Translations under genes and position numbers: made by a program | Shown: positions 796 through 20,536 of the stretch, piece after piece | Numbering within the stretch: position 1 is the stretch's first letter | Layout of the letters: the number at the start of each line of letters is the position of its first letter | Assembly: GCA_048938005.1 (NCBI GenBank) | Contig: JBHLMQ010000043.1 | Location: 1 to 26,183, forward strand | Origin: Promethearchaeota archaeon | GTDB taxonomy: Archaea > Asgardarchaeota > Lokiarchaeia > Sigyniarchaeales > SOKP01 | DNA: 26,183 nt | Direction: 5' to 3' | The notes under the pieces: generated by a model | Database searches by the model: none | Told to the model about the DNA's origin: nothing | Seen by the model: the letters and a program-made list of their open reading frames with translations, nothing else

Positions 796-2109
796 TTAAT
801 GAGTAGCACACGAAATACAGGGATCAAAAGCTCTGATTATTCTCTGCACCTCTTTTTTCACTAAATTAATATCACCTGTTTTTTCAAATAATTCTTGAGC
901 ATGTTTCGTAATCATCTCATTAATAAGTGGAATATTAAACTCAGTAGCAATAAATAATTTTATTCGATCAATAGAATTACTTTCATTAAGGTGATAATGA
1001 TGAATTAATATCCCTCTAGGTGCTTCAATAATACCTATCCCATCCAGATTTGTTATTGAATTCAGAGGAGAAAATTTTTCTCTTATATTTAAAGAAGGAT
1101 CGTTTAAAATTTGTAATCCATGATAAGCTTCAATATACATTTCTAATAATCTAATAAAATTAGCAAATAATATATTGTTTTTCCATGATTTATTAAAATA
1201 ATCAAGATAGGTATGAACTTCATCAATTCCATAATCCTCGATAATATTATAACGGGAAAGGGGACCAACAATCACATTTTTTTTATTTTCAAAATAAAAA
1301 TCAATTCCACGTAAATCATTTTCTTTACCAAAATAGGCAGAATAGTTATTTTTTTCAAATTCTATCAAATTTTTATTGTTTTCTTTTATTCTTAAATTGC
1401 CTGAATAACGATCATAATTTTCATTGTTAGAAAGGCCAAGAAAAATAAAATGTGGAAAATAATATTCTTTTGGTGGTATTTGATTAGAAAACATTTCAAT
1501 AAATTTTTCTATAATCCATTCTAAATTGTTTAAAGCCTTTTGAAATTTCTTTTTAGCAAGTGAAATATTTTTTCTAAAAGGGGAATATATAACCCCTCCA
1601 GGGATAACTGAAATCAAATGAACAGACCTACCACCAAATAAATTATTTATTTCATTTCCAATTTTAATTAATTCATATAAATTTGATGCTAATTGAGGGT
1701 CATAATTAATTAATTCATAAGGAGTAAACGTTTTTTGACTAAAATCAAAAATTGCTAAGAGATCTGGTAAAGTTTGGAAGAAAAAATTCATAGAATGAGA
1801 TTTAATTAATTCTCCACTCATTAAAAGGTGTCTTAAAAGAATAGTTTGTTCTGAAACTTCGATGTTATATATATTTTCTATTGCTTTACAACTTGCGATC
1901 GCTTGAGAAGCATAACATAACCCACAAATTCGAGACACTATTTTTGGAATATCCAATAATTTTTTTCCGATTAAGAAATTTTCAAATCCTCGATATATTT
2001 CGAATTCAAAATTTACTAATGAAATATCATCATTCTGGAGTAAAATTTTTACATCTCCATGACCTTCAACTCGTTTGCAAACATCAATGACTTTTAACAA
2101 TCTTATCAC
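796..2109 (-). CDS. mvhA: [NiFe]-hydrogenase large subunit, group 3 (MvhA-like), with no C-terminal extension and a Gln in L1
   Basis: Motifs RVEGHG, L1 RICGLCYASQ, EAPRG and L2 RAFDPCISCATH followed directly by TAA. The start is GTG 2109 (overlapping the mvhG stop) or TTG 2100 after a GGTGA SD. Confidence 0.92.
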   Translation of the reverse strand: MIRLLKVIDVCKRVEGHGDVKILLQNDDISLVNFEFEIYRGFENFLIGKKLLDIPKIVSRICGLCYASQAIASCKAIENIYNIEVSEQTILLRHLLMSGELIKSHSMNFFFQTLPDLLAIFDFSQKTFTPYELINYDPQLASNLYELIKIGNEINNLFGGRSVHLISVIPGGVIYSPFRKNISLAKKKFQKALNNLEWIIEKFIEMFSNQIPPKEYYFPHFIFLGLSNNENYDRYSGNLRIKENNKNLIEFEKNNYSAYFGKENDLRGIDFYFENKKNVIVGPLSRYNIIEDYGIDEVHTYLDYFNKSWKNNILFANFIRLLEMYIEAYHGLQILNDPSLNIREKFSPLNSITNLDGIGIIEAPRGILIHHYHLNESNSIDRIKLFIATEFNIPLINEMITKHAQELFEKTGDINLVKKEVQRIIRAFDPCISCATH

Positions 2110-2864
2110 CTTCTAAATTTTGGTTTTGAATAGCGATAAAAAATACCAGTATAATCTTTTAATTCTTGAGATAAATTTATCAAGCTCAAATAATTAATAA
2201 GATTGGATGTAAAGTCTTTTGATACCGGGCCCATACATCCTTCGCATGGAAGCCCCATTTTTATGCATTTATATTCACAGCCATCACGAGTTATAGGACC
2301 TAAACATAAAATACCCTTTTCTAAAAAACATTCAGAATTTTCTTCATCTAGACTAATTTCTTCTGGATTTGGATTAATTTTCGAGATATTTATATGAGAA
2401 TTTATTTTCATATTCCCCTTTAATGAGCAATTAGCACACATGTTTTTCTCTGATAATATTATATCTTTATTCTCAACTAACCTGATTAGACTGTTTCCAA
2501 AAAGTTTAGAAGGAGGAGGACAACCAGGAATAATACCATCAATTTCAATATAATTAGAGATTGGATCTGCTACTTTTGAACTTGAAAGGCTTAAAATTCC
2601 TCCAAAACATGCACAGGTTCCCAAAGCATAAACTTTTTTTGCATGTTTTCGAACATCTTGAAGCACCGTTATTTGCGTTTCCTCAGAAACACAGCCTTCT
2701 ACTAAAGCAATATCTGAATCTTCAATATTTTTAGCATCTAAAATAAATTGAAAAAATATTATCCTTGTTCTCTCAAGGAATTGCGGAAAAATATCTAAAG
2801 AAATAAGAGTTGAGATGCACCCACTACAAGAAGTTAGAGAAATTATTATAACTCTAGGCTTCAA
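2106..2864 (-). CDS. mvhG: [NiFe]-hydrogenase small subunit (MvhG-like), about 252 aa
   Basis: Proximal-cluster motifs CSGC, VEG, GTCA and PGCPP. Distal Cys-rich region CANC...CFLEKGILCLGPITRDGC..KC...PCEGCMGP. Start moved from 2915 to TTG 2864, which follows an AGGAGG SD and gives MKPRVIIISLTSCSGC. Confidence 0.9.
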   Translation of the reverse strand: MKPRVIIISLTSCSGCISTLISLDIFPQFLERTRIIFFQFILDAKNIEDSDIALVEGCVSEETQITVLQDVRKHAKKVYALGTCACFGGILSLSSSKVADPISNYIEIDGIIPGCPPPSKLFGNSLIRLVENKDIILSEKNMCANCSLKGNMKINSHINISKINPNPEEISLDEENSECFLEKGILCLGPITRDGCEYKCIKMGLPCEGCMGPVSKDFTSNLINYLSLINLSQELKDYTGIFYRYSKPKFRR

Positions 2865-5403
2865 ACTTAATCTCCTCCTGTAATTTTTTATAAAATTTAT
2901 TTGAGATTTCAGCAAATCTATTACCCTCTACCGCATTCATATGTTCAATTACTATTCGATCTTTGTATTTCGGCGGTATAATATTTTTTAATAACTTAAT
3001 TTTGTTTTCTACTTTTTCGATTCCATCAATATATCGACAAGCATTTTGTCTACATCCAAATATCATTACTCCATCGAAACCGAGTTCAAATGATTTAATA
3101 ATAAAATTAGTATCAATACGTCCTGTACAAGGAACACGTACAATAAAAGTATTTGGATTATATGAAATTTTCTTAAGACCAGCATCATCAGCAGCGGCAT
3201 AACCACAAGAAGCACAACAAAATGCAATAATTTTTGGTTGCACTCTGAATTTTGAAAAAACTTTAATTGTTGCAAAAATCTTTTCAGAAGTGTCGATATT
3301 TAAATCTATTGCATTGGTAGGACAGACACTAACACAAGTACCACATCCCTTACATTTGAATTTATCTATACTTATTTTATCTGATTCTAATGTAATAGCA
3401 TTATAAGGACAAATTTTAACACAAAATCCACATAAACCACATTTATTTTCATCAATTTTAATTCCACTAAACTCTGCTATCAAATAATCTTTAGAAAGCA
3501 AAGAGATAATCTTTAAAGCACATTTATTAGCTGATGAAATTGTAGAATTATAATCTAATGGACCAAAGATAGTCCCAACTCCATAAATACCAGATGCTAA
3601 TGTATCTTCACTCATAAATCCATTATCATCTAGTGTAAAATCCATATATTTTCGAAAATTTGTTAAATCTTCATTAGGGATATATTTTAGATTTAATACT
3701 ATTAAATCGCTTGGAAATTCAATATTATCAGCAATAACATGATTTATATCTTTATTAGTTTCAATAGTAATTTGATTAGCATATAAAAATCTTGGATTTG
3801 TTGATCTTAACAAAATCTCTTCCTTATCTTTTAATTTACTTAAATCATAAAAAATATTGATTTCGCAATCAGGATTTCTTATCTTAATATCCTCAATATA
3901 TTTTTGCGCCAAAATTTCTGAGTAATTTGAAAGATATTTTGATGGACCAACCTCTTGGATAATAGAAATTGAGTTTATAGGTTTTTTATCTGATAATCTT
4001 ATAAGTTTTCCTTCAGTAATACCATCGTAAGATAATATACGTTCAAATTCTGGCGATGTTATTATATTATTTTGTGGATTATAGTGGTAATCCTCTAAAT
4101 CCCTATAAAAATCAGATCCAATAGCAATTACTTTACTGCCAACCTTGATTTCGAGTTTTTCTTCTTTTTGAGTTAAATCTATTGCTTTATTCACACACGC
4201 GCGTTCACAAATTCTACAATTAAGACAATTTTTTAGATCTTCTTCATCAATTAAAGGAATATATGGATATGAATGAATAAATGGGATATATATTATTTTT
4301 CGATTAGTTAAGCCAAATTCATATTGATTTGGTTTTTCTATACTACAAATTTCTATACAATGTTTACATCCAGTACATTTTTTTAAATCAATATAACGAG
4401 GTTTTTTAACCAAATTTAATGTGAAATTTCCTACTTCACCTGATACATTTTCAATATCAGTATTAGTAAAAATTTTTATATTTTTTTCATTCACTAATTC
4501 ACTTATTAATTCTGAAATAAAACATATTGAACAATCACCCATATTATGGATTCGATGCCATCTGGCTACCTTACCACCTAAAGTTGGTGATTTTTCAATT
4601 AGAAAAACTTTAATACCGGATCTTGCTAAATTTAAAGCAAGAGTTATACCTGCAATTCCGCCCCCTAAAATTGCACAGCTCTTTTCTATTTCAACTCTTT
4701 TAACTTCTATTTTTTTTTGAAGGTTTACACGTTCAATAGCAGCTTCAATTAATAACTTAGCTTTTTCTAATAAAAGTGAAGGATCTATTTGATTTATTTC
4801 AAACTGATGTGCCCAACAACATTGCTCTCTAATATTGGCTACTTCTATATTTGCACTGTCAATAACATTATCAAAAATTCGTTCAAAAAGATGTTGATGT
4901 GTTCTTGGAGAACATGCGGCTATTACAATTTTATTTAAAAAATTATCTTTAATCCATTGAGCAATTTTATTAAAATTCTTTTGTTGACATAAGTTCTCAA
5001 AAACTTTTACGGAAACTACTTTTTTTAACTTATTCACATAATTTTCAATTGCATTAATATTAATTATATTTGAAATTTCTGTATTACAAGTGCAAATTAT
5101 TACTCCAATTCGGCTTATTTCGCTTCCCTTTGAATCCAAATATTCGTCAATATTTTCGCCCGATAAAATTCTTTTATTAATATTAAGTATTTTAAGCACA
5201 CGTTTACCATCTTCAGTAAGAAAATATGATTTCCTATTTTTGCCTATTAATGAACTAATTTTTTTAAGATGAAAATTTAGTTGTCCCGTTGTTTCTAAAC
5301 CAAGTTTTTCCATTAAATCTGTATAGGGAATATAACCCTCCTTTTCTAATAATAATAAAATTTTTCTCCTAAATGGATGAGATAATATTGAATATATATC
5401 CAT
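2854..5403 (-). CDS. Winged helix-turn-helix :: degenerate HdrA :: MvhD fusion protein (849 aa)
   Basis: Residues 1-75 look like an ArsR-like wHTH (ILSHPFRRKILLLL...YTDLMEKLGL..TGQLNFHLKKI...YFLTEDG). HdrA motifs follow: IGVIICTC, AACSPRTH, NIREQCCWAH, GGGIAG, two 2x[4Fe-4S] domains and EFER. The C-terminal MvhD domain reads AFCCASCGYAAAD...RVPCTGRID...GCRQNACRY. Confidence 0.9.
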   Translation of the reverse strand: MDIYSILSHPFRRKILLLLEKEGYIPYTDLMEKLGLETTGQLNFHLKKISSLIGKNRKSYFLTEDGKRVLKILNINKRILSGENIDEYLDSKGSEISRIGVIICTCNTEISNIININAIENYVNKLKKVVSVKVFENLCQQKNFNKIAQWIKDNFLNKIVIAACSPRTHQHLFERIFDNVIDSANIEVANIREQCCWAHQFEINQIDPSLLLEKAKLLIEAAIERVNLQKKIEVKRVEIEKSCAILGGGIAGITLALNLARSGIKVFLIEKSPTLGGKVARWHRIHNMGDCSICFISELISELVNEKNIKIFTNTDIENVSGEVGNFTLNLVKKPRYIDLKKCTGCKHCIEICSIEKPNQYEFGLTNRKIIYIPFIHSYPYIPLIDEEDLKNCLNCRICERACVNKAIDLTQKEEKLEIKVGSKVIAIGSDFYRDLEDYHYNPQNNIITSPEFERILSYDGITEGKLIRLSDKKPINSISIIQEVGPSKYLSNYSEILAQKYIEDIKIRNPDCEINIFYDLSKLKDKEEILLRSTNPRFLYANQITIETNKDINHVIADNIEFPSDLIVLNLKYIPNEDLTNFRKYMDFTLDDNGFMSEDTLASGIYGVGTIFGPLDYNSTISSANKCALKIISLLSKDYLIAEFSGIKIDENKCGLCGFCVKICPYNAITLESDKISIDKFKCKGCGTCVSVCPTNAIDLNIDTSEKIFATIKVFSKFRVQPKIIAFCCASCGYAAADDAGLKKISYNPNTFIVRVPCTGRIDTNFIIKSFELGFDGVMIFGCRQNACRYIDGIEKVENKIKLLKNIIPPKYKDRIVIEHMNAVEGNRFAEISNKFYKKLQEEIKFEA

Positions 5404-5505
5404 TATATAAATCCCTCTTTTTTTTCCCTCAATTTCAATAAAAGTATTTTAATTCTACTCTAATTAAAACAAAAATTATTATTATTCATCTCTTGAATTT
5501 ACTGA

Positions 5506-6633
5506 TTAATATTTCCATGTTATCAATTTTTTTCTCATGTTTTTTTCCATTCTTACTATTTTTGATTGGGAGAATTGCGCAATTTTTTCTTTCATTTCCT
5601 TATGAGTAGAAGCATCCAAATTTAAAATTTTAATTACACCTGCCTTTATTACTTTATTCATTATTTCTTTTCCTTTTTTAGTGCGTATAATTACAGTTGT
5701 AAATTTATCTTGAGAGCCCAAACCTCCAAAAGAAATATCTGAGTAAATATTAGTGAAATCACCGCAAACACTACAAGCTGAGCGCATGTATTTTGTTAGT
5801 TTTTCAAAGGGTATATGGATAGTATTTTGAGAAGTTCCCTGATTCTTAAGGTTGATAATTAAATTTTCTTTAATGTTTAATCTTTCAATGTTTTTGAGTT
5901 TAAATTTAAATTCTTTTTCGAATTTCTCAACCCTTACTTTATCAAAAAAAAAATTCTCGTAGCAGAATAAGCCCAAACAAATTTCTATGTTTTCTGATGG
6001 AATAATCCCTAGATTTTGCATACACCTGATTGTATAGATCTGGCATGGTGTTCCAACTAATGCTAATTTCTTTAATTTATAATATCTTAATTTAGGTAAT
6101 GAGCGAGTATACGTGTGAAATTTTTGTACAGTATCTAACTGTGGAGATACGTCTAACGTAACACCTGAAGCTTTAATTAAATCTTCTTTACTTTTAGCGA
6201 GTATAGCTTCTCTAGAAAAAGGGGCTTTTGTTTTCGCAACAATTGCTCCATCAATCATTTTATTTTCTATTAAATAATTAATTATTGAGTTTACAACACC
6301 ACCATCTGTTCCATATTTCAAAAATTCTTTATCTGTGGCTTGGCAAGAATAAATTCTTTCTACAAATCCTAAAGGCATTGACGAAAAATCTGAAAAATTA
6401 AAAGTTTTATTGAGATCCGCGTCTAAAACGTGGGTCTGTGGACAAATAAGATAACAAATCCCACATTTAAGACACTTTTCTTTATTTATATATTCTGGAG
6501 GCAAATTTGGTTCCTTAAATCCAATTACCTCATTTTCAATTGAATTACAAAAACTTACGCACCCTCCACATTGCTGACAAATACCAGGCTTATGGACTTC
6601 TTCAATTAAATTATTAAAAGTTTTTATATTCAT
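5506..6633 (-). CDS. Coenzyme F420 hydrogenase/dehydrogenase beta-subunit family (FrhB-like) with an N-terminal ferredoxin domain
   Basis: CQQCGGCVSFC and CLKCGICYLICP, DGGVV, LVGTPCQI, GLFCYENF, CSVCGDFT..YSDISFGG. An AAGGGTGA SD lies upstream. Confidence 0.88.
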   Translation of the reverse strand: MNIKTFNNLIEEVHKPGICQQCGGCVSFCNSIENEVIGFKEPNLPPEYINKEKCLKCGICYLICPQTHVLDADLNKTFNFSDFSSMPLGFVERIYSCQATDKEFLKYGTDGGVVNSIINYLIENKMIDGAIVAKTKAPFSREAILAKSKEDLIKASGVTLDVSPQLDTVQKFHTYTRSLPKLRYYKLKKLALVGTPCQIYTIRCMQNLGIIPSENIEICLGLFCYENFFFDKVRVEKFEKEFKFKLKNIERLNIKENLIINLKNQGTSQNTIHIPFEKLTKYMRSACSVCGDFTNIYSDISFGGLGSQDKFTTVIIRTKKGKEIMNKVIKAGVIKILNLDASTHKEMKEKIAQFSQSKIVRMEKNMRKKLITWKY

Positions 6634-6707
6634 TATTAAAAATCACCCTTTTTTATTCATAATCTTAAAAATTATCATGATTATTTTAATAATTTTTATG
6701 ATTACCA

Positions 6708-6725
6708 TGATAAATATTATTGTCA
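6708..6725. promoter_or_regulatory. Candidate operator TGATA-N8-TGTCA, next to a minus-strand TATA-like box (TTTATATA, about 6729-6736) for the frhB-like operon
   Basis: An 18-bp variant of the perfect palindrome at 6875-6892. Confidence 0.5.
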
Positions 6726-6874
6726 AGATATATAAATATGATCTTTTTGAATCATGATATGACCATAGATCATAATAAATCACGATCAATACCTATATTG
6801 TAAATCAGAGAAATGATCATATAAATACTAAGAAAGACTAAAGAAAGATCAAAATTGTGCTTTTAATGAAAAAA

Positions 6875-6956
6875 TGACAAATTAATTTGTCAAAATAAGA
6901 TTAATTTTTCTTATCAGATTTTTTAAATCTCTTTTAACTCATCATATAATCGGAAT
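6875..6956 (+). promoter_or_regulatory. Promoter block of seleno-hdrA: perfect palindrome TGACAAATTAATTTGTCA (6875-6892), AATTTTTCTTATCA box and TTTAAA TATA-like box
   Basis: The palindrome is read directly. The block aligns ungapped with 16003-16084 at 63/82 positions. Confidence 0.7.
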
Positions 6957-7074
6957 ATAACGGAAAAGAAGTAGGCTTAATTACATTTTTGTAAATTTTG
7001 CATTATTTCTCAAAACAAAATTTTGAAATTTTATCATAAAGAATATTTGGTGATGTTTGAAAAAGGTGGATTAA

Positions 7075-9111
7075 ATGTCTGAAAAACAGACCATTGTTAG
7101 AATAGGAGTATATATTTGTAGATGAGGAGTCAATATTGGTGCTAAAATTGATTGTGATATTATTAGAGATTATGTTGAGGCACTCCCTAATATAATTGTT
7201 GCTAGAGTAAATGATTTTACTTGTAGCGATCCAGGACAAAATATTATTAAAAATGATATTTTAGATTTAGACTTAAATCGAGTAGTTGTTGCAGCTTGTA
7301 CACCAAAAATTCATGAATCCACTTACCGAAAAGTGTTAACTGAAGCTGGTTTAAATCCATATTATTTTCAAATGGTTAATCTCCGCGAACATTGCTCTTT
7401 TGTATCCTCAGGTAATAAAAGAAATAACACAGAAAAAGCTATAAGATTAATACAAGCAGGAATAAACAGGGCACGAGAATTAGAAATTATTCCTCATAAA
7501 AAAATTTCAGTGAAAAAAGAAGTATTAATAATAGGAGCAGGAATTGCTGGGATGAATGCTGCATTAGATTTAGCAAATCAAGGGATAAAAGTCTATTTAG
7601 TCGAAATAGAAGCTACAATTGGTGGAAAAATGGCACAATTAGATCGAATTTATCCAACTGATGATTGTGCTATATGAGTTCTCGCTCCTATTATGGTCAG
7701 TACTTCAAAACATCCAAATATAACATTATTTACTTATAGTGAAGTCGTTGAATTCAGTGGCATCCCTGGGAATTATGATATTAAAATACGGAAAAAGCCC
7801 CGTTATATTGATGAAAAAAAATGTACTGGTTGTGGATTATGTACAACAAAATGTCCAATAAAAGTACCAAACGAATTTAACAGAGGTATTGGTGAGCGAA
7901 ATGCGATTTACATACCTTTCCCACAAGCAGTCCCAAAAGTTGCTCTAATTGATAAGAGTATATGTATAGGATGTAAAAATTGTCAAACAATTTGCCCCGC
8001 AGAAGCCATTGACTTAGACCAATCTTCAGAATATTTTGATTTCAAAGTTGGTGCAATAATTATAGCCACAGGATGGGATGAATATCCAATTATGAAAAAT
8101 AACGAATATAAATATGGTATTTATCCCGATGTAATTACTCAAATAGAGTTAGAACGTATGTTAAGTCCAGTTGGACCAACAGGAGGCCATGTATATAAAA
8201 TTTCTGACGGAAAAATCCCAAAAACAGTGGCTATGATTCAATGTGTGGGTTCAAGATCCTTAAAAGGGAATCCCTATTGCTCAGGAGTATGTTGTAATGT
8301 TGCTCTTAAAAATGCTCAATTATTAAAACAAGAATATCCTGATATAGATATTGCCATTTTTTATATAGATATGCGAACATGGGATAAAGGAAATGAAGAA
8401 TATTATAGAAAAGCGAGAGAAGCGGGGATAATGATGATTCGGGGAAAAGTAGGAGACATACGAGAAGAGCCAAATACAAAAAAACTAAAAATACGAGCTT
8501 CATCAACCTTAACAAATGATATTATTACAATGAATACAGATTTAGTTGTATTATCAACGGGTATGGTTCCTTCTAAAAATACTGCACAAATAGTTGAGAC
8601 TTTAAGTTTAGGCAAAGACATAAATGGGTTTTTAACTGAAGTTCATGGATGTTTAAAACCTCAAGAGACAAATAATATGGGCATTTATATATGTGGCTGT
8701 GCTGCTGGCCCTAAAAATATCCCTTATTCAGTATCTACAGCCCTAGCCGCAGCAAGTAAGGCATCTACATTACTTTCTAAAGAGACAATAAGTAAAGAAT
8801 TAATTATTGCTGAAATAAATGAATCTAAGTGTATGGGATGTCATAGATGCGAAAAACTCTGTAATTATAATGCTATAAAGATTAATGAAGAAAATATTGC
8901 TGAAGTAGATGATCTAAATTGTAAAGGTTGCGGGGTTTGTGTATCCTCATGTCCCGCTCATGCAATCGATCTCAAATATTATAGAGACAAACAAATTATT
9001 AAAGAAATAAAGGGGATCTTTAGTACTGACCTTGAATATAAGGAAGAATTTATTGAATCTATTGAACTAATTTGGAAAAAGATTGAAGCACTAGCTCCTC
9101 ATAATATATAA
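7075..9111 (+). CDS. hdrA: Heterodisulfide reductase subunit A, selenoprotein with two Sec (U17, U201), 678 aa
   Basis: ATG 7075 follows AAGGTGG. A single frame is interrupted only by TGA 7123-7125 (GVYICRUGVNIG) and TGA 7675-7677 (YPTDDCAIUVLAP). The paralogue at 10821..13934 has Cys at both sites (VCRCGTNIG, FPTLDCSLCILAP). This call merges track ORFs 7333..7677 and 7693..9111. Confidence 0.93.
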
Positions 9112-9186: not shown

Positions 9187-10317
9187 TTATAATTGAGTAT
9201 TTGTTTTTAATGAAATTAATTTTTTATACCAATTAAGTTTCTTATTTATCCAATCTCGACTTTCGCTAGCTGCTACAATAAATTGTTCAATTAATCCATA
9301 AGAAAGAAGAGATTTGATTATTTTATGACCTATTTCTGTTCGAATAAGTATCATTGAATAATCTTTTGGTGCTCCAGATGATCCAATACTTATATCTGAA
9401 AATCGACCAGTAAATTCATTACATTCGTGGCAATGTTTTCTGATTGCAGGGTCTAGTTTTTTGATGTCTACTTCAATTTCTTCATTTTTTTTAGTAGATA
9501 TAAAAAAATTCTTCTTTATCCATGTTTTTTCAATATTAATTGGATTTACATTTACTTCTTTTCTTAAGATATCGAATAATTTGCTATAATCAAAATTTTC
9601 GAAACAAAAGAGACTTATAATATATTTAATAACATGAGCGGGTTTAATACGTAAAAAACGCATTTTGCTTATTGCTCTGCATTGACAAGGTGTGCCAACA
9701 AATGCCAAGCGTAATTGGTCTATGTCAAAAATCCTTCTTTTCCTGAAAATTTCTTGTGAAATATGATATAAATCCTTTAAAGGGATTATCTGAGAAGATA
9801 TGGAAAAGCGTGTCCCTGCTGATTTTAACAAATCATCTTTGTCAAATATAATTTTTGGAATTGGTTTAAAGTTTTTATCAAATTCCGAAACTATAGCGGC
9901 ATCAATCTTGTATTTATCAAATAGATAAGCTAGAATTGTTGAAACTACACCTCCATTTTGTCCAAGTTTCGCTATCGCAGCGTTTGTTGTTTTTGCTGCG
10001 AGAATTTTAATAATATGTCCAATTTTATCTTCAATTTTGTAAGCATTATTTAATTCTTTTAATAATGGGGAAGTTTGAGGACATATATAATAACATACAC
10101 CACATTCAGTACAATTATAGCCATTTTTTTCTGATTTAAACCTTGGTATATATTCATCCATTTCAATAACATCAAAATTTTGACTTTCACAATATGCTAC
10201 ACATGCAGCACAACTACAGCATTTATCAGTTTGTATAATTTCATTATCAAGGTCTTTAAAAGTTTTTAAATTAAAATCAATAAATTTTTTAGAATTTGAT
10301 TCAGTCATAATAACCAT
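9187..10317 (-). CDS. FrhB-like F420-dependent oxidoreductase beta subunit with an N-terminal ferredoxin domain (second copy)
   Basis: CCSCAACVAYC, CTECGVCYYICP, GQNGGVVS, FVGTPCQ, LFCFENF, CHECNEF..RFSDISIG. The start may be ATG 10308. Confidence 0.88.
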   Translation of the reverse strand: MVIMTESNSKKFIDFNLKTFKDLDNEIIQTDKCCSCAACVAYCESQNFDVIEMDEYIPRFKSEKNGYNCTECGVCYYICPQTSPLLKELNNAYKIEDKIGHIIKILAAKTTNAAIAKLGQNGGVVSTILAYLFDKYKIDAAIVSEFDKNFKPIPKIIFDKDDLLKSAGTRFSISSQIIPLKDLYHISQEIFRKRRIFDIDQLRLAFVGTPCQCRAISKMRFLRIKPAHVIKYIISLFCFENFDYSKLFDILRKEVNVNPINIEKTWIKKNFFISTKKNEEIEVDIKKLDPAIRKHCHECNEFTGRFSDISIGSSGAPKDYSMILIRTEIGHKIIKSLLSYGLIEQFIVAASESRDWINKKLNWYKKLISLKTNTQL

Positions 10318-10338
10318 CCTTTTATTTCTAATTTTTAA

Positions 10339-10818
10339 TTAATTACGTTTAAATTCCATTATTCCAAATTTTTTGGGGATTTTTGATTCCCCTAACTCTT
10401 TAATTGTTTTTGTAAATTCTATGATAAGCTCTGAAAATTGTTTCCCTTCGCTTGCTGAAATTGAGTATACCCGAAATCTCCCTTCCTCAATTCCGATCAT
10501 TTTTAATAAATTCTTTAAATGTTCCATTCTGATTAGCATATATTCAAAACCGTGTATATAATGACAATCACCCTTATGGCATCCAATAATTAATACACCA
10601 TCTATTCCATTATTAAAAGATCTTAAAATATATATAGGCTCAATTCTGCTTGAACACATTACTCTAACAATTCTAATGTTTGGAGGGTATTGGAATCTTG
10701 ATACTCCTGCTAAATCCGCTCCAGCATAACTACACCAATTACAGCAAAATACTAAAATAGTTGGTTCAAAATCTTTGATTAATCTTTTCTTAATTTTTAA
10801 CAAGTTATACTCACCCAT
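10339..10818 (-). CDS. mvhD: Hydrogenase [2Fe-2S] subunit MvhD (Cys form)
   Basis: FCCNWCSYAGADLAG, RVMCSSRI, GCHKGDCHY, ISASEG. Confidence 0.95.
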   Translation of the reverse strand: MGEYNLLKIKKRLIKDFEPTILVFCCNWCSYAGADLAGVSRFQYPPNIRIVRVMCSSRIEPIYILRSFNNGIDGVLIIGCHKGDCHYIHGFEYMLIRMEHLKNLLKMIGIEEGRFRVYSISASEGKQFSELIIEFTKTIKELGESKIPKKFGIMEFKRN

Positions 10819-10820
10819 CT

Positions 10821-13800
10821 TTAAGCAATATCATATATAGGTGATTCTATTCCTGGTAATAAATCAATCATCTGGTTAATTTGAAACTTGCTAAAATGAT
10901 TTTGATCTATAGCACCAACTGAGCATTCTGCAACACATCCTCCGCAACCTTTACAAACAGCTTTAATTACACGAGCTTTATGTATATTAATAGTATATAA
11001 ACCCATTTGTTTTGTAGTTTCATATAATTCGATGGCGTTATAAGGGCAAATTTCAGCACATCTACCGCATCCAATGCATTTATCTTCATTAATTTCAGAT
11101 GTTATACACTCAGCTTCTATTTCTCCTTTTATCATTAATATCGCTGCTCTACCAGCTGCCCCATATGCTTGAGTTATACTTTCACCAATCCATTTTGGCC
11201 AATGAGCCCCACCACATAAAAAAATACCTTCTGTTGCAAAATCTATTGGTCTAAGCTTTGCATCAGCTTCTAAAAAAAAACCATCTTTATTTGTTGGAAC
11301 TTTCAACAATTTCGCTAATTGTTCAGTTCCTTCGGCAGGGACTTTAGGGGTGGCTAATATTAATAAATCAACATTATATTCTAAGTCTGTTCCAGCACCA
11401 ATGTTTTTATATCTTATATGAAATTTGCCATTTTCGTCGCTGATTTTAATATCATCAATTGAATTGTATTTCTCATACGTAACTTTTTGTCGAAGATTTC
11501 GCCATAGATTTTCAGCATTTAAATCTGAAAATTGAAACTCTCTATATAAAACATGAATATGTGCTTTTGGGTTGATATTTAACAATTTCTCGATATTTTT
11601 TAATGCTACTCCACAACAAATATTAGAACAATAGGTTTTTATATTATCTCCATTATTATATTGGTTCCTCCTTTGATCTACGCATAGTATTATTAAAGCA
11701 TCATTAAATCTAGGAATATCTTCATCCTTAGTAGATGTTAATTCTGTTTGGGTTAAGACCTGTTTGGGATATCTTTCTGATAAATAGGACCATCGATTTG
11801 TCTTTATTTGCTTGGTTCCCGTAGCTACAATTATAGTACCTACTTTGAATAATTGATCTTCTGAATTTTTTTGGAGATTTCTAACTTTAACTTGATAATT
11901 TCCAACATAACCTTGAATATCAACAACTAGAGAGTTTAATAAAATATGAACATTAGAATTATTCTTCAAATCATTAATTTTCTGTAAAATTTGAGTTTTC
12001 GTAATAGGTATATAATATAAATCAATAAATTCGATTGCCACTCCTCCAAGTAAAGATTTCTTATCTACAAGATAAACTTCAAATCCTTGGTTCGCTAAAT
12101 TATGTGCAGCAGTTATTCCTGCTATTCCGCCACCAATTATTAAAGATGATTTTATAACTTTAACTTTAATAATATCTAACGGTTTTAAATTAATTACTTT
12201 TCCCAAATACATTCTAATTAAATCGCATGCTTTTTTCGTTGCCATTTCAGGCTCTTTTTGATGAACCCAAGAATCTTGGTTTCTTATATTTACTAGCTCA
12301 AATAAAAATGGATTCAAACCAACTTCTTTTAAAGTACTCCTAAATAATTGTTCATGTGTTCTAGGAGTACAAGAAGCGACTATAAATCTATTAAGATTAT
12401 ATTTTATGATTAAGTCTTTAATACGTTCTTGGGAATCAGAGCTACAAGAATACATATTTTCCTCAACATGAACAACATAAGGCAATTTAGAAACATAATT
12501 TACTACTTCAGAAACATTAACAATGCCTCCGATATTAGTACCACATCGACAAACTAAAATACCTACTCGAGGTGTATCCTCAGGTGTTATTGTTATTTCT
12601 GGAGGATATTTAATTTTTTTTATTTTTTGAAATCTAACAGAGTATAATTTTTCACTAATTTTAGCCGCACATGCAGAACCTTCAGCAACGGCCATTTGAA
12701 TATCATTTGGTTTTCTAGAATAACCAGTTACAAATATATTCTTTCTTTCAAGTAAGATTATATCTTTTTCACGAATATAGCCTAAATCATTAGAATTCAC
12801 ATTCAGTTGTTTTAAAAGTTTATAATAAGAAGGAGTTGGAGATAATGCACTAGCTAATACAGCCATATCCACTTCAAAAGTTCCAACTTTCCCTCTGTCA
12901 ACGTCCTCGAAATATAGTTTTAATTTCCCGTTAGCTAAATTCCCTTTGATATATGAAACGCGACCATTAATATATTTAACCTTATATTCATATTTACTTT
13001 TTTCAATAAACTCATAAAAGCTCTTCCCTTTAGCTCTGATTTCTGTATTAAAAATATAACATTCAATATTTGGATCATGTTCTTTAACAACAATAGCTTC
13101 TTTAGCTGAATTCATACAGCATATAGCAGAACAATATTTTTTACATCCAGAATGATGAACGTTCCGAGAACCTACACATTGTATAAAAGCAATTGATTGA
13201 GGACGTTTTTTATCATCTAATTTTATAATTTGCCCACCGGTAGGTCCATTTGCAGATAATAAGCGTTCAAATTGCATACTAGACAAGACATTTGGGGAAT
13301 CACCCGCGAAATTAGTATATATTTCTGGCATTTCTTGGCTCTCTCCTGTAGCAATAACAATAGCACCTACATTTAATGTTATTTCTTCTGGTTTTTGGAA
13401 AAAATCTATAGCGTCAGCATTACAAGCATTAGCACAAATTCCACATATTCGAAAATTCAAATATAAACAATTTGTATCATCAATAAGATATACTGGAGGT
13501 ACTGATGATGGAAAAGGAATATATATACTTTCTCGAGTTTTTAAATGGGTATCAAATTCGCTAGGAATTCCTTTAACTGGACAAATTTTTGCGCAATCTC
13601 CACATCCTTTACAAACATCTTCTTTTATATATCTTGGCTTTCTTATAACTAATATTGTGTAATTCCCTGCACATCCTCTAATTTTTTTAACATAAGAATA
13701 AGTAAATAACTCAATATTTGGATTTCTATACACATCAACCATTTTAGGAGCTAAAATACACAAACTGCAATCAAGTGTAGGAAATATTTTATCTAATTGA

Positions 13801-13934
13801 GCCATAGTTCCTCCAATTGTAGGTTTAATTTCAACTAGATATACTTTAAACCCTAACTTAGTGAGGTCTAATGATGCCTGTATACCAGCTATTCCACCCC
13901 CGATAACTAAAACATTACTCTGCAGTTTTTGCAT
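10821..13934 (-). CDS. hdrA: Large HdrA-like protein with two FAD-binding modules (1037 aa)
   Basis: Two GGGIAG Rossmann motifs and two cluster motifs (QCVGSR..YCSAICC; LCVDQR..YCSNICC). The HdrA N-terminal domain (GILVCRCGTNI, ASCTPRTH) sits in the middle, and there is a C-terminal 2x[4Fe-4S] domain. Confidence 0.9.
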   Translation of the reverse strand: MQKLQSNVLVIGGGIAGIQASLDLTKLGFKVYLVEIKPTIGGTMAQLDKIFPTLDCSLCILAPKMVDVYRNPNIELFTYSYVKKIRGCAGNYTILVIRKPRYIKEDVCKGCGDCAKICPVKGIPSEFDTHLKTRESIYIPFPSSVPPVYLIDDTNCLYLNFRICGICANACNADAIDFFQKPEEITLNVGAIVIATGESQEMPEIYTNFAGDSPNVLSSMQFERLLSANGPTGGQIIKLDDKKRPQSIAFIQCVGSRNVHHSGCKKYCSAICCMNSAKEAIVVKEHDPNIECYIFNTEIRAKGKSFYEFIEKSKYEYKVKYINGRVSYIKGNLANGKLKLYFEDVDRGKVGTFEVDMAVLASALSPTPSYYKLLKQLNVNSNDLGYIREKDIILLERKNIFVTGYSRKPNDIQMAVAEGSACAAKISEKLYSVRFQKIKKIKYPPEITITPEDTPRVGILVCRCGTNIGGIVNVSEVVNYVSKLPYVVHVEENMYSCSSDSQERIKDLIIKYNLNRFIVASCTPRTHEQLFRSTLKEVGLNPFLFELVNIRNQDSWVHQKEPEMATKKACDLIRMYLGKVINLKPLDIIKVKVIKSSLIIGGGIAGITAAHNLANQGFEVYLVDKKSLLGGVAIEFIDLYYIPITKTQILQKINDLKNNSNVHILLNSLVVDIQGYVGNYQVKVRNLQKNSEDQLFKVGTIIVATGTKQIKTNRWSYLSERYPKQVLTQTELTSTKDEDIPRFNDALIILCVDQRRNQYNNGDNIKTYCSNICCGVALKNIEKLLNINPKAHIHVLYREFQFSDLNAENLWRNLRQKVTYEKYNSIDDIKISDENGKFHIRYKNIGAGTDLEYNVDLLILATPKVPAEGTEQLAKLLKVPTNKDGFFLEADAKLRPIDFATEGIFLCGGAHWPKWIGESITQAYGAAGRAAILMIKGEIEAECITSEINEDKCIGCGRCAEICPYNAIELYETTKQMGLYTINIHKARVIKAVCKGCGGCVAECSVGAIDQNHFSKFQINQMIDLLPGIESPIYDIA

Positions 13935-13989
13935 TTTTTAATCATCATAAAATATTATTTATTTAACAAATCGAGTTTTCACAATGTAT

Positions 13990-15246
13990 TTAAACAAGAA
14001 AAAGCAATTTTCCTATAAAGCTTGCTAAATCCATCACCTTTATATTGTTTCTTAGATCTTTTTTCTCTTCATTTGAAGAAGGTTCGTTTAGATAACAATT
14101 GAAATGTGTCAAACATTTTGGACAACAAACAATTAAGTATTCCGCGCTAGTATTAATTGCTTCATTTATACGATTTTGCCTTAAAAAGCGTGAATATTCA
14201 TTACAATTTAGAAATGTTGCGACGCCACAACAATTAGCATCATCTTTAATATTATCCATTTCTATCAATTCAACTCCTGGAATTTGTCGTATCAATTCTC
14301 TTGGAGCGTCATATAATTTTCCACCTAAACGTCCCATTCGACAAGAGTCATGATATGTTACCTTAATCTCAGAACTTTGAGGAAATTTAACATATTCAAG
14401 AATTTTTTCTTTTAAAAAAAATTCAGAATAATGAAAAACTTTGAAATCAAAACCATCTACTATTTTTGGATAATCATATTTCCATATTCTATATCCTTCA
14501 GCACATCCAACTATAACAATTTTTACTCCAGCATCCTTATAAAGCTGGGTATTATATTCAGCAAATTTTATAAAAGTTTCAATATCGCCCTCACCCCATA
14601 AAATATCATGGCCACAGCATTTTTCATTTAAAACTACCGGTACAATATTGGCCTCATTAAGTAAGCTTATTATCGTTATGGGTATTTCGGTATAATTACA
14701 TTTAAAATTATAAAAAATTTCTTCCATTAAAGGCAAACATCCAATAAAATAAGCAATTTCGCCTGAATCTGCTGTTTTTAGCTCTTTTTCTTCCAAAAAA
14801 TCTAATTTATTTGGATTTATTGGATTATTTGCTGTCATTTTCGAAATTAAGGGTACAATTTCATTATGAGTTTCACACTGAGTAATTCTATCAATTTGAA
14901 TTTTACTATTTCTTGATGCCTTTCTCAATTCTAAGATTAAATCAGGTATTCTTACTCCTAAATTCTCTTGAGTCATTGGACAATATATTGAACATTGACC
15001 ACATGTAAGGCAATTCCATATATTATGATTAGTTAAGACTTCTTCTATTGGATATAAGATTAAATCTCCTACCAATTTTCGTGGAAAAAATACGTCTAAA
15101 TGCGAAAGTGGACACACATTTACACATCGATTGCAGGCAAAACAATAATTTGCCATTGAAATTACATTTTTAATAGTTACCCCTAAGTTTTGAAAGTTAG
15201 AATTACTACACTTAATTTCATTGTTAATATAAGAAGACATAGACAA
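13990..15246 (-). CDS. HdrD-like Fe-S oxidoreductase (4Fe-4S dicluster plus two CCG domains)
   Basis: CFACNRCVNVCP, CLTCGQCSIYCP, KCCGH, GCAEG, YHDSCRMGR, NCCG, CCPKC. The start is TTG 15246 or ATG 15240. Confidence 0.88.
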   Translation of the reverse strand: MSMSSYINNEIKCSNSNFQNLGVTIKNVISMANYCFACNRCVNVCPLSHLDVFFPRKLVGDLILYPIEEVLTNHNIWNCLTCGQCSIYCPMTQENLGVRIPDLILELRKASRNSKIQIDRITQCETHNEIVPLISKMTANNPINPNKLDFLEEKELKTADSGEIAYFIGCLPLMEEIFYNFKCNYTEIPITIISLLNEANIVPVVLNEKCCGHDILWGEGDIETFIKFAEYNTQLYKDAGVKIVIVGCAEGYRIWKYDYPKIVDGFDFKVFHYSEFFLKEKILEYVKFPQSSEIKVTYHDSCRMGRLGGKLYDAPRELIRQIPGVELIEMDNIKDDANCCGVATFLNCNEYSRFLRQNRINEAINTSAEYLIVCCPKCLTHFNCYLNEPSSNEEKKDLRNNIKVMDLASFIGKLLFLV

Positions 15247-15480
15247 TTATTCCTCGATGTAAATTTCAAAATATCCGCATTTAGAACAAACATAAGTTCT
15301 AACATTAGGAGCCCTGCGTCTGAAAATGTAGTCTTTATTTTCTAGAAGTGCCCCACATTTAATGCAAATTTCTTTTTCTTCCTTCTTTTCTATTAACGTG
15401 TATTTACCACCCCCAATTTTAATATAAAATTTAATATTTTTAGGAATTAAATATATTATTTTGAAAAGATCAATCTCCAT
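15247..15480 (-). CDS. Small zinc-ribbon protein
   Basis: CIKCG...CSKCGYFEIY; abuts the hdrD-like start. The true start is uncertain, because an internal GGGGGTGG SD-like run at about 15406-15413 suggests a shorter product. Confidence 0.7.
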   Translation of the reverse strand: MEIDLFKIIYLIPKNIKFYIKIGGGKYTLIEKKEEKEICIKCGALLENKDYIFRRRAPNVRTYVCSKCGYFEIYIEE

Positions 15481-15895: not shown

Positions 15896-15913
15896 TGACA
15901 AAAATAATTTTCA
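15896..15913. promoter_or_regulatory. Candidate operator TGACA-N8-TTTCA
   Basis: An inverted near-copy of the site at 16003-16020. Confidence 0.5.
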
Positions 15914-15973: not shown

Positions 15974-16084
15974 TGATAAGAAAAATTATTTAAATAATAT
16001 TTTGAAAATTTTATTTGTCAAAATGACTAAAATTTTTCTTATCAAATTATTTAAATTTTAATCAAATTATTATATAATTGGAAT
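15974..16084 (+). promoter_or_regulatory. Promoter block homologous to 6875-6956. TGAAA-N8-TGTCA (16003-16020) is flanked by a perfect 14-bp inverted repeat, TGATAAGAAAAATT (15974-15987) / AATTTTTCTTATCA (16031-16044).
   Basis: Direct sequence comparison. Confidence 0.7.
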
Positions 16085-16184
16085 TAATCTCATAGCTCAA
16101 AAAGATGGATTGGGTTCATCTTATGAAGTTATGATAGTTTCATGAAGTTATATTAAAAATAACATAAAAAGGTATATATTTAAG

Positions 16185-16814
16185 ATGGAAGTATTAGAAT
16201 TAAAACCAATAAAAAACAAAAGTATATGTATATATTTAATAGAAAAATCGAGATTTAATTTTCTACTCAATGATATTGAAAATTTAAATGAATTAATACA
16301 TAAGAATGATATTAACTTTATTACAATTGATATAGATGGCGAAGATTTCAAAAAGTTCAAAAATTCAAGTTTTTCAAAGGTTCTCAATGCTTTAAATATA
16401 GAATATTATCTATTAGATATGCCTGAGTATGCATATGGATATATATATGAAGAAATAGTGAGAAAAGAAGAACAAGTTAGTGAATTATTACATGAATATC
16501 AAAATATGATTGATAAAGACTCTTTTAAATGCCTAAACTTAAAATCCTGGATTGATGTTCTTAAGAACGAAATAATACAGGACAAAAATATTTTAGAATT
16601 AAAAATAAGACCACAATGGATTGTTAAAAAAATTTTAAATTTAGTTAAAAAACAAAAAAATGAGAATATTTCTCTAATTCATTTTGCTCATGAAAAAATT
16701 ATTTCAGAAACAATTAAGCAATTAAATGAGCTTCATATAGAAGTAATTTTTTATGACTTTAATTGTATTTACAATATCCCATATTTAATTATAAAACAAG
16801 GGGAGAGTAATTAA
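16185..16814 (+). CDS. Hypothetical protein, paralogous to the N-terminal domain of the downstream gene
   Basis: Starts MEVLELKPIKNKS versus MEVLELKPLKKKS, with colinear similarity throughout. TAATG stop/start overlap with the next gene. Confidence 0.8.
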   Translation: MEVLELKPIKNKSICIYLIEKSRFNFLLNDIENLNELIHKNDINFITIDIDGEDFKKFKNSSFSKVLNALNIEYYLLDMPEYAYGYIYEEIVRKEEQVSELLHEYQNMIDKDSFKCLNLKSWIDVLKNEIIQDKNILELKIRPQWIVKKILNLVKKQKNENISLIHFAHEKIISETIKQLNELHIEVIFYDFNCIYNIPYLIIKQGESN

Positions 16815-18499
16815 TGGAAGTTTTAGAATTAAAACCTTTGAAGAAAAAAAGTTTGAAATTGGTATTGATAGAAAGTGAATTTCCAATAGAGTGGTGGTTT
16901 GAGACATCAGCACAGAAAAAGCATGATTTAGTATGGAATTTACATCTAATTTCGAAGGAATACCTTAATCTAATTAAAGATCTCATAGCAAAATATAATC
17001 CTGATTTTGCTGTCGAGGAGAAAGGAAGTCGATGGGAAGATACAATATCTCACGATGATCCTTTAGAAACATTATTCAGGGAATATAAAATCCCATATAA
17101 AATGGTAGATATTTCAGAAAATGCAGAAAATTATCTTTCCTCGAATTTGGAAGATCACAGACAACTTATAAAGCAATTAATAATATCAATTAAAGATATT
17201 AAAAAGAGTAATGATAAAAACTTTCCAAAAGATGATTTTGAGTTTCAGAGAATGGTTTTATGGAAGGAATATTTGCAGCAAGAATACAACCTTCAAGAAA
17301 ATGAAATAAGATATAATGTTCGTGAAGCTTGGATGATGATGGGAATTATAAAATTTGCAAAGAAAATGATTGAAAAAAAATTGAAAGCATTCTTTATCTG
17401 TGATCATAGGCATTTCAAAGGTATCACTAAATTAGCAGAAGATTTAGGCATTCAAACCGAAGAAATAAGAATCAAACGGTTAGCAAAAGTTATAAATAAT
17501 CCTGGTTCTAATTCCATTAATACTATAATTGGCAAATCTATACTTGAATTATCTCCAATTAAAGTGAAAAAGAATGAATCACTAGAAAAAATTTGTTACT
17601 TTTTTGATACTGATGATAATGCTTCTCCTTTCGATATAAATATGGCTTATGATGCTGGTTTTGATGTTGTTATCCCTATTAGTAAGATGACTGCTGAGCA
17701 AGTCCCAAAGCTAGTACAGGATGCCATTTTTTCACGTAAGCCAAAAGCACCCACAACATTTTTTATTGGCGGTTCTAATGTTAAAGAAGGAGAGGAAATA
17801 GCTAAAAGAGTTATAAAATCGTTAATAAGCCCATTTGAATGTCCAGTGATTATTGATCCTCGTGGTTCTCACACCACAGCCTCTTCAATCGTTGCTAAAA
17901 CTATTCAAGTCGCAAGGGAACTTGATCTATATGATTTAAAAGGTAAAAAAGTAGTTATTTTTGGAGCAGGACCAGTTGGAAGAATAGCAGCTATACTAGC
18001 AGCAAAATTAAAATGTACAACTTATCTAGTAGAAACATGGGAAAAATCCAGTGAACAATCTATTAAAAAATTGGCAAAAGAATTAATGGAAGAAGCTGGA
18101 GAAAATGCTACAGAAATTGTGGGTATTTTTGCACCAAACGATGAAAAAAAATTAGAAATAATAAAAGATGCAGATATTATTTGGTCACTTGCTGCTGCTG
18201 GAGTACAAATATTATCAAAAAGTTTAATGCTTAAACTTAAAAATAAAATTCTAATTGATATAAATTTAGTTCCTCCTTATGGAATTGAAGGATTAAAGCC
18301 AAAAGATGATAACAAAGAGATCTATCCAACTATATACGGAATTGGCGCTTTAGCTTTAGGGCGTTTGAAATCTAATATTGAGGCAAATATACTTAAAGAA
18401 GCATCAAATAGTAAGGGAAAAAAAATTTTTGATTATAATTATGCTTTTGAACAAGCAAAGAAGATCTTGTTAGGAAATGAAATAAAAATCTCTGCTTAA
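16814..18499 (+). CDS. Unknown N-terminal domain (about 245 aa) fused to NAD(P)-dependent methylene-tetrahydromethanopterin dehydrogenase (MtdA/MtdB family)
   Basis: SPFDINMAYDAGFD, QDAIFSR, FIGG, DPRGSHTTA, GAGPVG, AAAGVQI, DINLVPPYGIEG and GIGALALG are MtdA/B family motifs. Confidence 0.88.
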   Translation: MEVLELKPLKKKSLKLVLIESEFPIEWWFETSAQKKHDLVWNLHLISKEYLNLIKDLIAKYNPDFAVEEKGSRWEDTISHDDPLETLFREYKIPYKMVDISENAENYLSSNLEDHRQLIKQLIISIKDIKKSNDKNFPKDDFEFQRMVLWKEYLQQEYNLQENEIRYNVREAWMMMGIIKFAKKMIEKKLKAFFICDHRHFKGITKLAEDLGIQTEEIRIKRLAKVINNPGSNSINTIIGKSILELSPIKVKKNESLEKICYFFDTDDNASPFDINMAYDAGFDVVIPISKMTAEQVPKLVQDAIFSRKPKAPTTFFIGGSNVKEGEEIAKRVIKSLISPFECPVIIDPRGSHTTASSIVAKTIQVARELDLYDLKGKKVVIFGAGPVGRIAAILAAKLKCTTYLVETWEKSSEQSIKKLAKELMEEAGENATEIVGIFAPNDEKKLEIIKDADIIWSLAAAGVQILSKSLMLKLKNKILIDINLVPPYGIEGLKPKDDNKEIYPTIYGIGALALGRLKSNIEANILKEASNSKGKKIFDYNYAFEQAKKILLGNEIKISA

Positions 18500-20185: not shown

Positions 20186-20197
20186 AATAATATAGCC

Positions 20198-20353
20198 CTA
20201 CAGGAAGAAATAAAAAAATATCATTACTAAAAAATAACAAAGTAATGCAATGCCTATTTTTTTTTTAGAACTTTTTTCCACTTTCAATCTTTCTAAAATT
20301 GGTTTTTCATCTAATTCACGTGCTTCTTTTCCAATTTCCCATCTTACTGGCAT
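20198..20353 (-). CDS. Small single-TM hypothetical protein (51 aa), not in the ORF track
   Basis: MPVRWEIGKEARELDEKPILERLKVEKSSKKKIGIALLCYFLVMIFFYFFL*; ends 12 nt before the TSUP start. Confidence 0.6.
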   Translation of the reverse strand: MPVRWEIGKEARELDEKPILERLKVEKSSKKKIGIALLCYFLVMIFFYFFL

Positions 20354-20536
20354 TTTAATTTAATTAATTTTTTAATTATAATTTATTAAATATCATTAGA
20401 TATAATTAAATATAATAATAATCTATTATATAAAGCTTATGTTTTTTTATATATCTAACGATTCAGCTTTTATTTAAATAAAATTTGATAAAGCTATTTT
20501 TTATTCACTTTTTAAAATATAGTCAAAAATCTTAAT

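Follow-up and report, generated by a model that had tools for sequence, protein, structure and literature searches.

Why should the flavin-bearing subunit of an electron-bifurcating complex begin with a domain of the type found in transcriptional repressors? The question is raised by a stretch of 26,183 nucleotides (nt) from a Promethearchaeota archaeon of the Lokiarchaeia (assembly GCA_048938005.1, contig JBHLMQ010000043.1), referred to below as the window, in which one gene encodes an HdrA-type protein with a winged helix-turn-helix (wHTH) at its N terminus and an MvhD domain at its C terminus. Hydrogen and syntrophy models of Asgard metabolism assign a central place to HdrA-type bifurcating modules. 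The answer towards which we lean is that this protein is a bifunctional trigger enzyme resembling PutA, which would regulate its own hdr/mvh module by a DNA binding that we infer from sequence comparison.

Domain structure and conservation of the fusion protein

The gene and the domains of its product are located as follows:

2854..5403, (-) strand: wHTH-hdrA-mvhD open reading frame (ORF) of 849 residues, with no internal stop codons
5179..5403, (-) strand: residues 1-75, ArsR/DUF7347-type winged helix-turn-helix, recognized by Pfam, the AlphaFold2 (AF2) model, Foldseek and profile matches
5113..5178, (-) strand: residues 76-97, C-terminal helix and linker, part of the predicted dimer interface
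3244..5112, (-) strand: residues 98-720, HdrA-type body, recognized by NCBIfam HdrA2 and by Pfam FAD and Fer4 families
2857..3243, (-) strand: residues 721-849, MvhD/FlpD domain fused at the C terminus (Pfam PF02662)

The in-frame wHTH-HdrA fusion had been proposed in an initial annotation made from the DNA letters alone, and the motifs on which that proposal was built (HPFRRKIL, GQLNFHLKKI, YFLTEDG and RIGVIICTC) all lie inside this single ORF. The span it assigned to the wHTH (5180-5403) agrees with residues 1-75. Its layout of the protein was right with respect to the wHTH and HdrA, but overlooked the C-terminal MvhD domain, where PF02662 covers residues 725-843 (E 9.3e-34). The HdrA body consists, in order, of an N-terminal iron-sulfur domain, a flavin adenine dinucleotide (FAD)/thioredoxin reductase-like domain with an inserted ferredoxin, and a C-terminal ferredoxin with two [4Fe-4S] clusters, and the Pfam matches in the middle of the protein are to FAD/Rossmann and several 4Fe-4S families. 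The NCBIfam model HdrA2 (NF040770) spans residues 98-843 with its positions 1-770 of 777 (E 1.2e-172). Since the model aligns end to end with this part of the protein, HdrA starts at RIGVIICTC, as the initial annotation had supposed, and residues 1-97 are an added module. The score of 575.9 bits falls short of the curated cut-off of 1100, so that the enzyme body is to be regarded as an HdrA2-like paralogue and not as an equivalog. The domain order, with MvhD at the C terminus, is the same as in Methanosarcina HdrA2, which is also an HdrA fused to MvhD; unlike that protein, the one described here has an N-terminal wHTH, which the HdrA2 model lacks, and its gene neighbors are FrhB-like and [NiFe]-hydrogenase genes instead of hdrB2C2. 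Across 55 homologous sequences the GGGIAG motif, C104, C106, C139, C164, C195, C291 and C294, and the cysteines of the ferredoxin and MvhD domains are invariant.

The fusion is genuine and not an artifact. Contigs from four DNA sequencing runs, belonging to four studies, were aligned over positions 4800-7100 of the window, and the junction (5113..5181) is bridged by contigs from other runs with zero indels reported, which provides the support across the junction that had been sought. One contig (X1 record 1) covers all of 4800-7100, and another (X2 record 11) covers 4888-5230 with 0 differences.

Both sequence profile and fold bear out the ArsR-like wHTH identity first suggested for the added domain. 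PF24038 (DUF7347) matches residues 2-71 (E 5.4e-9; 36.6 bits, cut-off 27.6) and HTH_24 is an additional weak match, while relatives of the domain also match HTH_20 and HTH_5. A single-sequence phmmer search of the PDB with residues 1-97 gave a weak match (E 0.037). A profile of 32 relatives, compared with solved structures, matched ArsR proteins (1y0u, 4e-7; 6j0e, 5e-6; 2p4w) and SmtB (7e-4). When the domain alone was modeled by AF2 with the 32 relatives as alignment, the predicted local distance difference test (pLDDT) value was 87.6, and the helices (H) and strands (E) of the model (H10-22, E24-26, H27-34, H39-48, E53-55, E59-62, H64-81) follow the predicted topology of a winged helix with an extra C-terminal helix. 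Foldseek matches in the PDB were nearly all wHTH DNA-binding proteins, mostly of the ArsR/SmtB and MarR types (OhrR, CadC, NolR, YodB, PagR, BigR, AntR, SmtB and HlyU), with template modeling (TM) scores of 0.6-0.7. The presumptive recognition helix comprises residues 38-49 and contains TGQLNFH. Classical ArsR/SmtB sensing sites are either cysteine-based in helix 3 or composed of His/Asp/Glu in helix 5. Residues 1-97 contain no cysteine, and no metal or thiol sensing site is evident in them; a signal would therefore have to originate in the enzyme body.

Two copies of residues 1-95 are predicted to form a homodimer (score 0.56; best of three controls 0.01) by symmetric pairing through residues 1-8, 13 and 68-89, with contacts agreeing to at least 80% between runs and a partner pLDDT of at least 80. 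In the calibration of the dimer tool, 20 of 30 proteins solved as one-chain pairs attained the mark, as did one of 23 solved as single chains. Since the predicted interface is of the ArsR type, resemblance to solved ArsR dimers may account for the pass. Conservation of linker residues 76-89 is attributed to their part in this predicted interface. The initial annotation had envisaged a dimer presenting two wHTH domains to a palindromic operator, a notion that gains indirect support from the predicted homodimer and from the 18-bp palindrome described below.

A word-indexed search with residues 1-100 yielded 160 proteins at E <= 1e-3 among 324 candidates, of which 120 were listed. PF24038 is present in all 120 listed homologues, and 116 of them are 839-855 residues long; the remaining four (474, 654, 679 and 751 residues) are encoded on short contigs, and three of these are labeled partial. 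The listed homologues come from genomes labeled Promethearchaeota/Lokiarchaeota and from other Asgard metagenome-assembled genomes, under the names 'hydrogenase iron-sulfur subunit' or 'FAD-dependent oxidoreductase'; 'DUF7347 domain-containing protein' is a further name in public annotation. Automated annotation has thus already flagged DUF7347 on these proteins, without interpretation. An exhaustive HMMER search with residues 1-90 revealed 780 relatives at E <= 1e-3, including many proteins of 80-450 residues and further long clusters at <50% identity (838, 845, 825, 781 and 530 residues). Three clusters of 825-845 residues carry DUF7347, FAD, Fer4 and FlpD, and the partial 781- and 530-residue entries carry DUF7347, FAD and Fer4 families with no FlpD. 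Members of the 825-residue cluster are named Bathyarchaeia, and the gene order wHTH-hdrA-mvhD, mvhG, mvhA was found in three Bathyarchaeia or uncultured-archaeon loci.

At the level of the phylum, 144 of 400 genomes match residues 1-150 at E <= 1e-10. By our own count of the table, 119 matches in 118 of the 400 genomes run uninterrupted from residue 1-2 to residue 145-150, most of them in open frames of ~840-900 residues. They fall into fusion families designated f1, f2, f4, f5, f6, f19, f21, f28 and f31, with identity down to 35%. The fusion gene is interrupted by TAA in one genome (G156) and cut at the contig end in another (G163). Mean pairwise identity among the 55 homologues is 77% in the wHTH core and 89% in the recognition helix, compared with 65-71% in the enzyme domains; judged by these alignments, the wHTH is conserved more strongly than the enzyme body to which it is attached. 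All residues of T39-G40-Q41-L42-N43-F44-H45 are invariant in the 55 sequences, and so are L80 and G82.

The same wHTH also occurs apart from HdrA. In one genome (G357) the wHTH and linker are fused to a protein of 658 residues whose body is orthologous (33% identity, E 8e-94) to the product of the Mpt_N gene located at 16814-18499 of the window. In another (G342) a free wHTH gene of 90 residues lies 4 nt upstream of the Mpt_N-protein orthologue. A free form of 93 residues (P0127 type) is present on five contigs of up to 30 kb, and a metagenome contig encodes a wHTH 83% identical to P0127 that is fused to HdrA and followed by mvhG and mvhA. The possibility raised at the outset, that homologues encode the domain as a separate, unlinked gene, is not what was found: a free gene exists, but it is linked to a module gene. 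A second enzyme-like carrier of this wHTH is present in the same genome as the window (L001, contig C87, 3405-5387): a protein of 660 residues that has the DUF7347 wHTH at its N terminus and also contains an ATP-cone and a region resembling NrdD, the anaerobic ribonucleotide reductase.

Candidate operator in this and related genomes

The fusion gene belongs to an operon that faces a second hdrA gene across an intergenic region, and a gene pair elsewhere in the window shares promoter features with it:

5506..6633, (-) strand: FrhB-like gene, first in the operon here (Pfam FrhB_FdhB_N and FrhB_FdhB_C; NCBIfam frhB subfamily)
2106..2915, (-) strand: [NiFe]-hydrogenase small subunit, VhuG/MvhG-like (Pfam Oxidored_q6; NCBIfam VhuG, E 2.4e-35)
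796..2109, (-) strand: [NiFe]-hydrogenase large subunit, VhuA/MvhA-like (Pfam NiFeSe_Hases; NCBIfam VhuA, E 2.3e-48)
7075..9111, (+) strand: second HdrA, here termed Sec-hdrA after its probable selenocysteine (Sec) residues, 678 residues, transcribed away from the operon out of their shared intergenic region; two TGA codons in frame
16185-16814, (+) strand: gene for a 209-residue protein with no Pfam or NCBIfam family
16814-18499, (+) strand: gene for a 561-residue Mpt_N-domain protein, forming with the preceding gene a pair at 16185..18499

Candidate operators with the pattern TGACAA-N6-TTGTCA were located at four positions:

6875..6892: candidate operator A, a perfect 18-bp palindrome between the frhB/wHTH-hdrA operon and the divergent Sec-hdrA
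6708..6725: candidate operator B, with one mismatch, located 75 nt before the ATG of the FrhB-like gene
15896..15913: one mismatch, 272 nt upstream of the gene at 16185
16003..16020: a single mismatch among the 12 specified positions; 165 nt upstream of the gene at 16185

Candidate operator A is the only exact copy of the palindrome in the genome of 3,720,495 bases. Allowing up to one mismatch in the 12 specified positions, the genome contains 12 sites, seven inside ORFs and five intergenic, and four of the five intergenic sites are in the window, distributed over two promoter regions. In relatives, the half-sites of candidate operator A are kept and the spacer varies. The stretches 6875-6965 and 16003-16095 share a promoter-like module of ~90 nt composed of the palindrome, TTTTTCTTATCA, TTTAAAT and TATATAATNGGAAT, a similarity that suggests co-regulated promoters of the same architecture.

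Among 41 related loci, which amount to 192 kb, 31 contain sites with up to one mismatch, 53 sites in all, whereas each of five control palindromes gave 0-1 sites. In L054 and the window, which have an frhB-like gene, a site lies ~75 nt upstream of that gene; in the six loci whose operon starts with wHTH-hdrA, a site is found 107-142 nt before its start. By these comparisons the site holds a constant position relative to the first gene of the operon. Within the genus, 33 exact sites occur in 27 of 54 genomes, as against five for the control pattern. Nine of the 33 are located 1.2-1.5 kb upstream of the fusion gene, in the promoter region of the operon, 14 are located 98-169 nt upstream of the gene for the 209-residue protein, and 10 are elsewhere.

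For more distant families, the 300 nt upstream of the fusion gene were analyzed in 32 loci, nine of which have a site with up to one mismatch (0-1 loci for controls). All three f21 loci contain two sites, an exact one 78-79 nt before the start codon and another at 235-237 nt, and all six f19 loci contain a site at 26-44 nt with one or two mismatches, in which the half-sites are kept and the spacer is variable. A site at 125 nt was found in three of seven f31 loci, and a variant with two mismatches at 227 nt in two of three f4 loci.

Presence of the fusion and of the gene for the 209-residue protein is closely matched across the 54 genus genomes: 36 have both, 13 neither, four only the fusion and one only the latter gene, with completeness <90% in each of the five discordant cases. 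No orthologue of the fusion is present in five nearly complete genus genomes, where the best match is 36% identical and starts at residue 69-98. In four of these five genomes the gene for the 209-residue protein has no match at E <= 1e-10, and the match in the fifth is 27% identical with internal stops. By sequence comparison, the module is accessory, present or absent as a block within the genus. Because genomes lacking the fusion also lack the gene for the 209-residue protein, and hence the whole module, a presence/absence test of the palindrome is confounded.

Proposed regulation and competing explanations

In the mechanism that we favor, the body of the protein (residues 98-849), an HdrA2-type flavin/iron-sulfur subunit with MvhD, would work with the co-transcribed FrhB-like protein and the group-3-type [NiFe] hydrogenase (MvhG/A-like). 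Two copies of residues 1-97, comprising the ArsR-type winged helix and the dimerization helix, would pair and bind TGACAA-N6-TTGTCA at the promoters of the protein's own operon, the divergent Sec-hdrA and the neighboring Mpt_N gene pair. In this way the protein would regulate its own accessory module at the level of transcription, with repression as the most likely mode. Two considerations favor repression: ArsR-type proteins usually act in this manner, and the f19 site is so close to the start codon (26-44 nt) that it should overlap the core promoter. As in PutA, the HdrA-MvhD body would provide the signal through its redox, cofactor or assembly state.

Proline utilization A (PutA) of Escherichia coli and Salmonella is the textbook flavoenzyme among trigger enzymes. 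As a dimer it is the repressor of its own divergent operon, its DNA binding presumably being governed by the state of the enzyme, and the switch is membrane association on FAD reduction. Like PutA, the protein described here combines an N-terminal domain, with putative DNA-binding function, and a flavin-dependent redox enzyme in one polypeptide; unlike it, PutA has a ribbon-helix-helix, is a proline/pyrroline-5-carboxylate dehydrogenase and has a bacterial host. With the ArsR/SmtB repressors (the Archaeoglobus fulgidus protein 1y0u, ArsR 6j0e, SmtB 1r22, CadC 1u2w/3f72 and NolR 4omz) the wHTH shares its fold, its profile and a predicted dimer formed by N- and C-terminal helices, as well as a candidate palindromic target, whose half-sites are 12 bp apart from center to center. 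These repressors, however, are free-standing proteins of ~100 residues with metal or thiol sites of their own, whereas the cysteine-free domain here is joined to a redox enzyme of 750 residues.

A number of observations weigh against the proposed mechanism. The Foldseek E-values are just ~1e-3, and the full-length AF2 monomer (mean pLDDT 74.6; <50 at residues 74-96) puts the wHTH on a low-confidence linker, so that its placement relative to the HdrA dimer is not fixed. The palindrome was chosen post hoc, after inspection of the window, the related loci are non-independent, and the looser pattern TGAYAA-N6-TTRTCA is not enriched genome-wide (seven sites, 0-9 for controls). Ten of the 41 close loci (L039, L040, L044, L045, L046, L048, L049, L050, L053 and L068) have no site with up to one mismatch. 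The same is true of four of the seven f31 loci and of all five f28 loci, one of which has a site with two mismatches and one of which has no located start codon. No convincing site was found upstream of the fusion gene in f5 and f6, and the three Bathyarchaeia loci have none even at two mismatches. Conversely, five exact palindromes occur in the 14 genus genomes without the fusion. One (G190) is on a 5.9-kb contig cut inside the module and three look like chance occurrences, but the remaining one, in a genome that is 94% complete (G204), lies upstream of an HdrD-like gene.

Some of these observations fit the main rival explanation, which we regard as unlikely, namely that the wHTH is a structural adaptor docking HdrA-MvhD to FrhB, the hydrogenase or another partner through protein-protein or dimerization contacts, with no DNA binding, and that an unlinked factor binds the palindromes. 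The occurrence of the fusion without the motif in Bathyarchaeia and f28, and of the palindrome without the fusion in G204, is in line with it, and the strong conservation of the 'recognition' helix fits a protein interface equally well. There is also a precedent, which likewise counts against DNA binding: BamF of class II benzoyl-CoA reductase has a wHTH within an HdrA/MvhD-type electron-bifurcating machine, and that wHTH is reported to belong to an MvhD-like subunit and to interface with BamI (bioRxiv 10.64898/2026.04.10.717634). The domain here, in contrast, is N-terminal and separable; the same wHTH and helix also occur as a free small protein of 90-93 residues or on the unrelated Mpt_N protein, and are thus not tailored to HdrA. 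The nearest solved relatives by both profile and fold are DNA-binding repressors, and the palindrome tracks the 5' region of the fusion gene across families that are 35-56% identical to the query (residues 1-150). As for an unlinked factor, the HTH of HdrA is the only one in the module among the ORFs scanned, and the other regulator of the window, a DtxR-like protein (23810-24190), is encoded beside feoAB and ZIP, 17 kb away, with no palindrome nearby.

If DNA is bound, the role of the enzyme body or the identity of the target could still differ from those proposed. It is rather improbable that the protein is a one-component transcription factor in which HdrA-MvhD has lost catalysis and now serves as a redox-sensing input. 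The HdrA2 score below the cut-off is indicative of a diverged paralogue, the 37-54 HdrA-like matches per related genome represent a redundancy that would permit a new function, and the wHTH-hdrA operon contains neither HdrB nor HdrC. Against such a loss, the cluster-ligand cysteines, the FAD motif and the MvhD cysteines are all invariant in the 55 sequences, and in both Asgard archaea and Bathyarchaeia the genes for the small and large hydrogenase subunits come next, for which MvhD/HdrA is the expected electron acceptor. We give even less credence to the idea that the wHTH binds DNA at another target, or unspecifically as a nucleoid tether of the complex, and that the palindrome is unrelated to it. 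The TG-x-L/F-N-F/Y-H-L helix is indeed retained in lineages without the motif, but the genome has a single exact copy of the motif, and both its half-sites and its placement before the gene are conserved, the latter in f1, f19, f21 and f31.

A broader form of the PutA-like reading, which we put forward tentatively and with less than even confidence, is that an electron-bifurcating hydrogenase subunit acts as the transcription factor of its own regulon, the state of HdrA-MvhD setting operator occupancy, and that the wHTH is used interchangeably in free, HdrA-fused or Mpt_N-fused form. If true, this would be an archaeal counterpart of PutA and a direct link, within one protein, of electron bifurcation to gene control across Asgard archaea and Bathyarchaeia. 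The compact accessory regulon would then consist of the FrhB-like gene, wHTH-HdrA-MvhD, the [NiFe] hydrogenase, the Sec-HdrA gene and the Mpt_N-type dehydrogenase pair. To our knowledge, it would also be the first case of an electron-bifurcating flavoprotein doubling as a transcription factor. Full-text literature searches found no description of a wHTH-HdrA fusion, and a literature search found no paper on DUF7347. The part of an archaeal fusion survey available to us (PMC11237513) lists HdrA-HdrA and HdrA-MvhD fusions and no HTH fusion; its supplementary tables could contain one.

Gene surroundings and other features of the window

As listed, with a TTG start, the hydrogenase small-subunit ORF shares 62 nt with the end of hdrA-mvhD (2854-2915). 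Its true start is probably downstream of that TTG, and translation of the two genes may be coupled. The only CCG-domain (HdrD-like) gene of the window (13990-15246) is in a separate operon.

Sec-HdrA reads through only if its two in-frame TGA codons encode selenocysteine, as is probable, at U17 and U201. By motif, these residues correspond to C106 (CTC to CRU) and C294 (DCSIC to DCAIU) of wHTH-HdrA. HdrA containing selenocysteine has already been described for Asgard archaea (PMC11227280). An Rfam scan of the window at gathering thresholds gave 0 matches, including none to the selenocysteine insertion sequence (SECIS). In five related genomes (G182, G186, G191, G204 and G227), many of the matches to the HdrA-MvhD query (37-54 in each) have 1-6 TGA codons in frame, an indication that the HdrA paralogues form a very large family, part of which consists of selenoproteins.

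The gene for the 209-residue protein is frequently divergent from wHTH-hdrA, and the nearest ESM Atlas clusters of its product are hypothetical Promethearchaeota proteins. Positions 19394-25933 are occupied by a metal-homeostasis cluster that includes a TauE-like exporter, FeoB, FeoA, DUF5320, a DtxR/MntR-like repressor, a ZIP transporter and a radical SAM protein. A further Hdr-type cluster on the (-) strand (9187-15246) encodes an FrhB-like protein, a free MvhD, a protein of 1037 residues with two FAD/HdrA-like halves, and the HdrD-like CCG protein. Directly upstream of the HdrD-like gene, an ORF of 77 residues (15247-15480, (-) strand) has a C-terminal CxxC...CxxC motif resembling a zinc ribbon, and its product could be a small nucleic-acid-binding protein.

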